Origin: a virus
DNA: 64,000 bases
Strand: one strand, 5' to 3'
UHGV virus genome: UHGV-1497419
Below are positions 30,113 through 31,143 of the stretch, in pieces. Each line of letters opens with the position of its first letter. Position 1 is the first letter of the stretch. The translations under genes and the position numbers were made by a program. The notes under the pieces were generated by a model that was given only the letters and a program-made list of their open reading frames with translations, was not told the origin of the DNA and made no database searches.

Positions 30113-30700
30113 ATGAAACTGCTAAATATCAAAATCACTGGTACTCGTCCTTTCTTGAGCCATAACGATACGCTGTCAGACCCATTAAACCCTCTGACAA
30201 AATATCACAAGTCTCTGTCCAGTAAACGTAAAAAGACTGACGAAGACTATGCGCTCTTAGCAGAAAGCCAACTGGTAACTTCTTGTTACTACGATGAGCA
30301 GCTAGGTTTTGTTATGAACGGTGAGATGATTGAGGCTTGCATCAAGTCTGGTGCAAAACTCAACAAACTTGGTAAGGTAATTGACCGAGCCATTATGCTG
30401 ACAGATGTAGTCTTCCCAATGACTATCAAGAACTGTCCAGCAAACCCACAAGAACTTGCTAAGAATCCAGACTTTATCTATGCTAAGTCTGTTAAGATTG
30501 GCACAGCACGAGTTATGAGCTACCGTCCAATCTTCCGTGACTGGTCTGTAGAGTTCGGTTTGATGTTCGATGAAGAGCAAATCACCAAAGAAGAACTCTT
30601 AATGGTTCTGGAAAATGCTGGTAACCTTTGTGGTGTAGGTGATTGGCGTCCACGCTTTGGTCGTTTTTCTGTAGAAGTTATTTCAGAAGGTAGCGTTTAA
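30113..30700 (+). CDS. Hypothetical protein (first gene of repeat-flanked cassette)
   Basis: 196-aa ORF after GGAG; no motif I recognise. Confidence 0.45.
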
Positions 30701-30702
30701 TT

Positions 30703-31143
30703 ATGAATACAAAAGCATTAGCAGCAAAGTTTAGTTACGGTGACACTGTATCACACTCTGAGATGGATACCTTCTTAGGTATTGTGAAGCCAACTTATCA
30801 AGGTGACATTGTTAAGTACGAAGATGAAATGAAGGCTTATGCACTTACACGTCTAAACCGACTTGAGAAGTTTATTGAAAAGCTTCTTAAAGAAGAGAAG
30901 ATTTATCTGGTTGCTTCAATGGGTGTTGGTTATCGTGTTGTTGAACCTAAGCATCAAGCAACTATTGCAAAACGTAAAATGTCTGGTAAGATTGGTCGAG
31001 CTTTAAAGCAAGCCACTCAAGCGATTGAGAATGTGAACACTATGGCACTTAGCCATCAAGAACGTTCACGACTGATTGAACAGCAAAACCACTTAGCTGC
31101 TATGAAAGCTAACATTAACAAGCAACGTAGAAAACCTTTCTAA
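30703..31143 (+). CDS. Hypothetical protein (second gene of repeat-flanked cassette)
   Basis: 146-aa ORF, translationally coupled; basic C-terminus. Confidence 0.45.
   Translation: MNTKALAAKFSYGDTVSHSEMDTFLGIVKPTYQGDIVKYEDEMKAYALTRLNRLEKFIEKLLKEEKIYLVASMGVGYRVVEPKHQATIAKRKMSGKIGRALKQATQAIENVNTMALSHQERSRLIEQQNHLAAMKANINKQRRKPF

Follow-up and report, generated by a model that had tools for sequence, protein, structure and literature searches.

A two-gene cassette enclosed by period-5 repeat arrays in a Felix O1-like phage is very probably a type II VIPR locus of the SUSP1 clade

We analysed two adjacent open reading frames (ORF1 and ORF2) and the G-rich repeat arrays enclosing them in a 64,000-nucleotide stretch of the virus genome UHGV-1497419 (hereafter the window), which belongs to a Felixounavirus, a myovirus of the Felix O1-like group. 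The region 29705-31471 is very probably a type II VIPR (Viral Interference Programmable Repeat) locus of the SUSP1 clade, comprising vipr (ORF1), vap1 (ORF2) and four vrRNA genes. ORF1 is identical to SUSP1 Vipr at 190 of 195 positions (97%) and ORF2 to SUSP1 Vap1 at 145 of 146 (99%), values above the >90% clade cut-off of the preprint describing the system. The system has already been described, and the locus, an orthologue almost identical to the type example, adds nothing fundamental to it because its proteins are so close to those of the published model.

As published (bioRxiv 10.64898/2026.04.26.720920), VIPR consists of Vipr, a minimal RAMP protein, an accessory vap gene and vrRNAs, which are made up of 9-16 YNNGG repeats followed by an invariable 3' tail, in the SUSP1 clade with a pseudoknot. 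Pairing with double-stranded DNA takes place through the NN dinucleotides, one target base being skipped per unit, and transcription is repressed; the guides of the SUSP1 clade converge on a satellite phage, and Vap1 enhances protection. In SUSP1 and P. fulva the vrRNAs are expressed and co-purify with Vipr, and the ribonucleoprotein binds double-stranded DNA and represses; furthermore, reprogramming of the NN in SUSP1 switches which foreign reporter is silenced, with vipr expression unchanged (bioRxiv 10.64898/2026.04.26.720920). Of the points made below, vrRNA expression, ribonucleoprotein formation, double-stranded DNA binding, repression and the enhancement by Vap1 come from these SUSP1 experiments, and the fold, gene pairing, vrRNA anatomy, covariation, target statistics and near-identity to SUSP1 were computed here. 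Transferred to the window, the promoter at 29705-29732 would give rise to a transcript of the upstream vrRNAs and vipr-vap1, and each vrRNA, ~95-110 nt long, would consist of 11-15 GGY-NN pentamers and, at the 3' end, a pseudoknotted tail. The tract would be coated by Vipr protomers that grip the conserved GGY and expose the NN; these dinucleotides would pair with double-stranded DNA in a register that skips one base between successive NN (skip-1), and the bound complex would block transcription. During infection the phage most likely employs the system in this manner to silence a parasitic satellite of E. coli.

Neither ORF1 nor ORF2 matched any family in Pfam, NCBIfam or PADLOC, and both matched only PHROGs of unknown function (PHROG 4652 and 5926). 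A total of 520 proteins of ~190 aa, encoded by phages and by prophages of Rhodococcus, Streptomyces, Gordonia and Xanthomonadaceae, are related to ORF1, and their alignment revealed an invariant glycine-rich C-terminal motif that resembles the RAMP G-loop. Its fold is that of the RAMP/Cas7 proteins, although sequence identity to the class 1 Cas7 proteins is just ~10-15%, and it displays the single RRM core, G-loop, thumb and small size (~20 kDa) of a Vipr protein. ORF1 is Vipr, a single-domain Cas7-related RAMP protein. Its ATG start is backed by the N-termini of homologues and by a GTGGAG ribosome-binding site ~10 nt upstream.

The TAA stop codon of ORF1 lies 2 nt from the ATG of ORF2. The gene pair is conserved in 59 of 62 distant IMG/VR loci, where the two genes overlap by 1-20 nt (mostly by 4 or 1 nt) or are at most 1 nt apart, and also in Rhodococcus and Xanthomonadaceae prophages. 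The first-pass annotation of this DNA had described two translationally coupled ORFs; the lengths it gave agree with ours (196 codons with the stop, hence 195 aa, and 146 aa), and the coupling is plausible because the pair overlaps or nearly abuts in almost all of these distant loci. Relatives of ORF2 numbered three in a word-indexed protein search and 234 in an exhaustive HMMER search, to which a profile search added little. As expected of a type II VIPR locus, ORF2 adjoins vipr and is predicted to be winged-helix-like; it is Vap1, an accessory protein of putative DNA-binding type.

The four repeat modules flanking the gene pair are mutually related and occur nowhere else in the window, and GGT, with a mean of 1.1 per 80 nt over the whole window, reaches 10-13 at the modules: the repeat feature is real and far beyond chance. 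TRF assigned the arrays a period of 5, and the tracts count 12, 15, 11 and 11 units, within the published range of 9-16 YNNGG repeats. In a set of 79 modules from 19 Felix-like loci, which yielded 64 unique tracts, the positional entropies were 0.82, 0.26 and 0.55 bits for G, G and Y as against 1.79 and 1.76 bits for the two N positions, i.e. GGY is conserved and NN hypervariable, as in VIPR.

This variability bears on an alternative in which the proteins are an origin-binding initiator pair and the arrays serve as the origin of replication, either as iterons or as a G-rich non-template strand prone to R-loops. Such an origin would suit a locus that lies in a cluster of replication genes (those for polymerase, ligase, DHFR and thymidylate synthase) and whose promoter runs into a G-rich tract, as well as the winged-helix-like motif of ORF2 and the occurrence of the prophage pair just after the repressor switch, a frequent place of replication modules. 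However, two of five tract positions being hypervariable between near-identical phages is the opposite of iterons, and about half of the Felixounaviruses are viable without both genes. Moreover, the fold of ORF1 is that of RAMP/Cas7 and not of an initiator, and the NN match satellite genes in one specific register (see below). On the strength of the RAMP fold, the hypervariable NN and the target matches we rejected the origin and R-loop idea, which we hold to be extremely improbable.

The 3' tails fall into four types unlike in sequence, each formed by a 4-bp hairpin and a 6-7-bp pairing between the loop and the 3' end (AGTCTC/GAGACT, TGGTAG/CTACCA, TGGCAG/CTGCCA or TAATCG/CGATTA), a structured and pseudoknotted tail as in the SUSP1 clade. 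In the tail alignment 97% of the cells were paired, a percentage inflated by the pairing-demanding pattern with which the tails were collected, as against 28-46% in slid controls, and nine of the 11 pairs showed compensatory changes. As a side observation, tail types are position-specific across the 19 Felix-like loci: a GTGG/CTACCA tail is invariably found on the vrRNA directly before vipr and an AAGG/CTGCCA tail on the last one in the locus, and internal vrRNAs carry GTAG tails with either the AGTCTC or the TAATCG pseudoknot. The number of vrRNAs in these loci varies from 1 to 3 upstream and from 0 to 3 downstream.

Evenly spaced triplets next to a hairpin also call to mind TRAP (trp RNA-binding attenuation protein), an oligomer which acts in cis, recognising in its own leader 11 (G/U)AG repeats with 2-3 variable bases between them. 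The modules resemble the TRAP site in their ~11 evenly spaced triplets with variable bases between, bound by an oligomeric protein, but the folds are unrelated and the TRAP spacers carry no information. If ORF1 were to work likewise, an oligomer bound to the ~11 GGU triplets of the leader would control terminator-like hairpins of its own operon only. The 11-15 even triplets adjoining hairpins with U-runs, the label of terminators given to the tail hairpins by the annotators of ASO1B and the RNA binding expected from the fold of ORF1 are all in keeping with this. A cis site, however, needs neither hypervariable NN, nor several differing copies on both flanks of the genes, nor copies beyond the terminator; the hairpins covary as pseudoknots rather than simple terminators, and register-specific matches to foreign genes would be left unexplained. 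Furthermore, the preprint describes trans-acting, reprogrammable repression (bioRxiv 10.64898/2026.04.26.720920). Attenuation in cis was rejected on the same three grounds as the origin, namely fold, NN and targets, and strikes us as very unlikely.

Because the preprint reports a baseplate protein that the satellite shares with SUSP1 (bioRxiv 10.64898/2026.04.26.720920), we searched complete E. coli genomes with the baseplate gene of the window, found at 44294-45091 next to the tape-measure gene, and thereby located the satellite. Homologues are present in 474 of 5426 complete genomes (~9%) at 70-96% identity (up to 96% at the DNA level), and sit in ~11-kb islands with phage-like tape-measure and baseplate genes, an HNH endonuclease gene and a large serine recombinase gene, inserted at no fewer than three sites (yciI-tonB, a split DUF72 gene near yecD, and ymdF-wrbA). 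At their left end these islands have stretches of 1.5-2.5 kb with no annotated genes. E. coli strain 20 (NZ_CP064847.1) is one of the island carriers. Thirteen islands from the 474 genomes were examined (L088-L100; e.g. L088 5750-17350). In these, 36 of the 51 unique guides of the clade had an NN identity of 80% or more in the skip-1 register, compared with 2, 0 and 1 when 0, 2 or 3 bases were skipped. None of the 36 matches lies outside the islands, which account for 53% of the DNA searched, and with shuffled guides, run against the first seven islands, 80% was reached in only 15 of 510 trials.

Among the guides of the window, that of vrRNA-1 matches at 21 of 24 positions in L088 16186-16220 (GATGGAGAATCAGAGAGGAAGATTGCAGCGTTACA) and that of vrRNA-2 at 26 of 30 in L090 12489-12532 (TGTGAAGAGATAGCTGGTTATTATCCTGCAATTATAGATGAAAC), with none of 200 shuffles as good in either case. 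Both sites lie on the coding strand of the serine recombinase gene and begin with the first base of a codon, which places the skipped base at the wobble position. Within the window itself the guides have no target, the best match there being 0.77. The guides of this phage group thus appear to be aimed at the satellite, and two of the four present here at its recombinase gene. The first-pass annotation had proposed an anti-defence or host-takeover role, which is only loosely right: what is encoded is not a protein-only cassette but an RNA-guided DNA-binding system directed at a competing satellite, i.e. a counter-parasite. Likewise, its suggestion that the expression or mobility of the cassette is tied to the arrays holds as to the tie, but the tie concerns guide RNAs rather than mobility or merely expression.

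Several points weigh against the assignment to VIPR, to which the inflated pairing percentage of the tails is to be added. The matches of vrRNA-3 and vrRNA-4 are marginal, at 18 of 22 each, and were equalled by 4 of 200 and 3 of 200 shuffles respectively; that of vrRNA-4 is on the antisense strand and does not place the skipped base at the wobble position, and exact skip-1 pattern scans of IMG/VR with these two guides returned nothing. The fold matches of ORF2 are weak and helix-dominated. Finally, the mechanistic steps rest on a preprint of 2026 that is not peer-reviewed (bioRxiv 10.64898/2026.04.26.720920), and it is from the 97-99% identity to SUSP1 that expression and binding are expected in this phage.

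The arrays recur beside the gene pair well beyond the Felix-like phages. In a blind scan of ~60 distant loci, covering all trinucleotides at periods 5 and 6, GGC or GGT was the strongest period-5 in-phase trinucleotide in ~45 of 62 IMG/VR loci and in all four prophage loci. These tracts are on the strand of the genes and adjoin the pair, mostly just upstream and in some cases just downstream, with up to 11 of 11 units in phase, and the arrays reach about ten modules in the sequences read. Since a RAMP protein, its partner and (GGYNN)n tracts recur together in distant loci, they constitute a conserved three-part system. Period-5 GGY tracts beside the pair in most of these loci, and arrays that encode guide RNAs, bear out the linkage between cassette and arrays posited earlier. 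Neither homology of the proteins to ordinary replication or structural proteins nor loss of the array linkage in relatives, the two outcomes which the first-pass annotation had named as telling against it, was encountered.

Compared with the SUSP1 locus itself, the order of promoter, vrRNA(s), vipr, vap1, terminator and vrRNA array is the same, as are the four tail types, the pentamer code and the satellite targets; the loci differ in that two vrRNAs lie upstream and two downstream here against one and three in SUSP1, and in that all four guides are different. The class 1 Cas7 proteins (Csm3, Cmr4, Csf2 and the Cas7-11 domains) work in a six-nucleotide step on any sequence, unlike VIPR, which is a single small protein with a five-nucleotide step and a fixed GGY, and whose guide, not drawn from a repeat-spacer array, is read two bases at a time, each unit passing over one base of the target. 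Seed et al. are said to have found in 2013 that the lytic phage ICP1 carries a complete type I-F CRISPR-Cas system, with nuclease and adaptation, directed against the PLE satellite of Vibrio cholerae. In both cases a phage-borne RNA-guided system has guides against a chromosomal satellite parasitising that phage, but the one in the window is a two-gene bind-and-repress system with no known acquisition machinery.

Each vrRNA, and vipr too, is preceded by a conserved element of ~35 nt (A[A/G]GTCTTT ... AGGGTYTTTTAA) with two direct repeats ~11 nt apart, which opens with the palindrome ACCTTTTTAAAAGGT where it succeeds type-1 tails and is absent upstream of the satellite-borne vrRNAs described below. 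It could serve Vap1 as an operator, or else direct processing; we found nothing on vrRNA processing in the main text of the preprint, which was not searched for the repeat element itself. In the KhF3 record the same 11-bp direct repeat is labelled 'possible binding site of StbAB'. This label, together with the 11-nt direct repeats (GGTCTTTAA / GGGTCTTTTAA) before each module and the otherwise CRISPR-associated nature of RAMP proteins, is what speaks for regarding the locus as a partition/centromere system, a degenerate CRISPR mini-array or an anti-CRISPR decoy RNA. A partition system of the StbAB or ParMR kind would, however, need a centromere-binding adaptor, an iteron centromere and an actin-like (ParM/StbA-like) ATPase, the last of which is lacking; ORF1 is a RAMP, neither protein matches any partition family, and the StbAB label was rejected as having no supporting protein family. 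As for CRISPR, this two-gene module has no multi-subunit effector; PADLOC and Pfam detected no Cas5, Cas6, Cas8, Cas11, Cas1-2 or other cas genes in the window, nor are there repeat-spacer units or CRISPR-type repeats. Rfam had no family, CRISPR direct-repeat families included, at the window locus or at five distant loci. We assign a negligible probability to these alternatives. The Felix O1 genome paper lists direct repeats and omits these arrays (PMC3185647).

The features of the VIPR locus are collected in the table below. All the parts of the arrangement claimed at first pass, two ORFs between a promoter and array upstream and a terminator and array downstream, could be located.

Table. 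Features of the VIPR locus in the window, and vrRNAs of the E. coli satellite islands (coordinates of the respective loci)
Feature	Position	Strand	Details
Promoter, sigma-70-like	29705..29732	+	TTGACA-N16-TATACT, 11/12 match; kept in relatives, including those without vipr
Leader element before vrRNA-1	29766..29794	+	AAGAGTCTTT-N4-AGGGTTTTTAA type
vrRNA-1	29795..29888	+	12 GGY-NN pentamers (29795-29854) and GG; guide NN: GA GG GA TC GA GG AA AT GC GC TT AT
vrRNA-1 tail	29857-29888	+	hairpin GTAG/CTAC, pseudoknot AGTCTC/GAGACT
Inter-vrRNA element	29889..29927	+	TACCTTTTTAAAGGGTCTTTAAACAGGGTCTTTTAATAA; two ~11-nt direct repeats
vrRNA-2	29928..30037	+	15 pentamers (29928-30002) and GG; guide NN: TG GA GA AT GC GG TT TA CC CA AT AT GA GA AT
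vrRNA-2 tail	30005-30037	+	hairpin GTGG/CCAC, pseudoknot TGGTAG/CTACCA
Element variant	30038..30112	+	AAAGAGTCTTCTGTTGAGGGTTCTTTATAA (30038-30075), then vipr ribosome-binding site
vipr (ORF1)	30113..30700	+	195 aa; minimal RAMP (Cas7-like) with C-terminal G-loop
vap1 (ORF2)	30703..31143	+	146 aa; predicted N-terminal winged-helix-like part (GYRVV motif) and long helical hairpin
Intrinsic terminator after vap1	31155..31178	+	hairpin 31155-31170 and T-run
Inter-vrRNA element	31171..31207	+	CCTTTTTAAAAGGTCTTTAAACAGGGTCTTTTAATGA
vrRNA-3	31208..31296	+	11 pentamers (31208-31262) and GG; tail 31265-31296, GTAG/CTAC with pseudoknot; guide NN: TA AT TT TG GT GG AA GT CA TT GA
Inter-vrRNA element	31297..31334	+	TACCTTTTTAAAAGGTCTTTAAGAGGGTCTTTTAACAA
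vrRNA-4	31335..31424	+	11 perfect GGT-NN pentamers (31335-31389) and GG; guide NN: TA TA CT GT AG TA GG TA TT GT AT
vrRNA-4 tail	31392-31424	+	hairpin AAGG/CCTT, pseudoknot TGGCAG/CTGCCA
Closing inverted repeat	31424..31471	+	perfect, 13 nt; arms 31424-31436 / 31458-31470
Satellite vrRNAs	L091 3677-3736, L093 3810-3874, L097 1710-1769, L098 3081-3140, L099 3788-3837	-	

The cassette lies between the ligase gene and genes of nucleotide metabolism, with DNA polymerase, ligase, DHFR and thymidylate synthase as neighbours, and the inverted repeat closing the locus overlaps the promoter of the downstream genes (31443-31471). The 2-kb VIPR region is 90-96% identical to that of more than 100 Felix O1-like phages. 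The ligase is carried by 260 phage records and Vipr by only ~118 Felix-like records, and the phages skuden and BPS17L1 lack both vipr and vap1, in agreement with the self-contained accessory module envisaged in the first-pass annotation. The ligase of the window (28561-29697) and its counterpart in phage AYO145A (KR014248.1) show 100% identity, yet in the 2-kb VIPR region next to it the identity is only 92.5% and the guides differ; guide content therefore turns over fast, and the contrast suggests that the locus recombines or that its guides are rapidly replaced. VIPR thus represents an accessory, fast-changing part of Felixounavirus genomes.

In wider terms, VIPR is a second, simpler form of RNA-guided DNA recognition and a proposed ancestor of CRISPR effectors, which needs one 20-kDa protein and a 100-nt RNA, reads a gapped code and requires no protospacer-adjacent motif. 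Its published anatomy and targeting rule are independently confirmed here on a larger set of 19 phage loci, 51 guides and 13 islands, and hundreds of pairs of 'hypothetical proteins' (PHROG 4652 and 5926), with their unannotated flanks, can now be named in Felix O1-like phages. Orphan guides, the element before the vrRNAs, the position-specific tails and the tRNA-like tails of an actinobacterial prophage are side observations.

In skuden and BPS17L1 the promoter and one complete vrRNA with a terminal-type tail have been kept (skuden L101 3895-4090, BPS17L1 L102 3740-3935). This orphan vrRNA has 12 units, several with a degenerate GGY, and the tail AAGG...CTGCCA, and the two phages have nearly the same guide, for which no significant skip-1 match was found in the 13 islands (18 of 24, inside the shuffle range). 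Solo vrRNAs of 10-13 units, with a phage-type GTGG...CCAC tail and a terminator of their own, also occur in five of the 13 satellite islands. With the skip-1 rule they match best (0.79-0.90) at sites in loci of the satellite set other than their own, although one of these sites, in L095, falls just outside the island. As tblastn recovered no vipr or vap homologues in any of the 13 islands, the satellite vrRNAs would need the Vipr of a helper phage. No mention of orphan vrRNAs was found in the main text of the preprint (bioRxiv 10.64898/2026.04.26.720920). Our tentative, and rather doubtful, proposal is that the orphan vrRNAs are not relics but load in trans onto the Vipr of a co-infecting or helper VIPR-positive phage, redirecting or decoying it; if true, they would add a layer of RNA-level parasitism to an RNA-guided system.

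Two further observations concern records outside the Felix-like phages. GU169904.1 (Staphylococcus phage SA1) encodes at 91679-92263 a Vipr 99% identical to the Felix-like proteins, and its ligase region matches as well; the record was probably made from a mixed sample and includes Felix O1-like sequence. In a prophage of Rhodococcus globerulus (L004 9100-9700), five vrRNA modules are situated downstream of the gene pair. The text of the VIPR preprint does not mention tRNA (bioRxiv 10.64898/2026.04.26.720920); the tails of these R. globerulus vrRNAs carry a tRNA-like T-arm (GGCGGTTCGATTCCGCCGCC), and ARAGORN reports odd tRNAs at 9138-9220 and 9496-9574, which suggests that these vrRNAs may be processed by tRNA-maturation enzymes.
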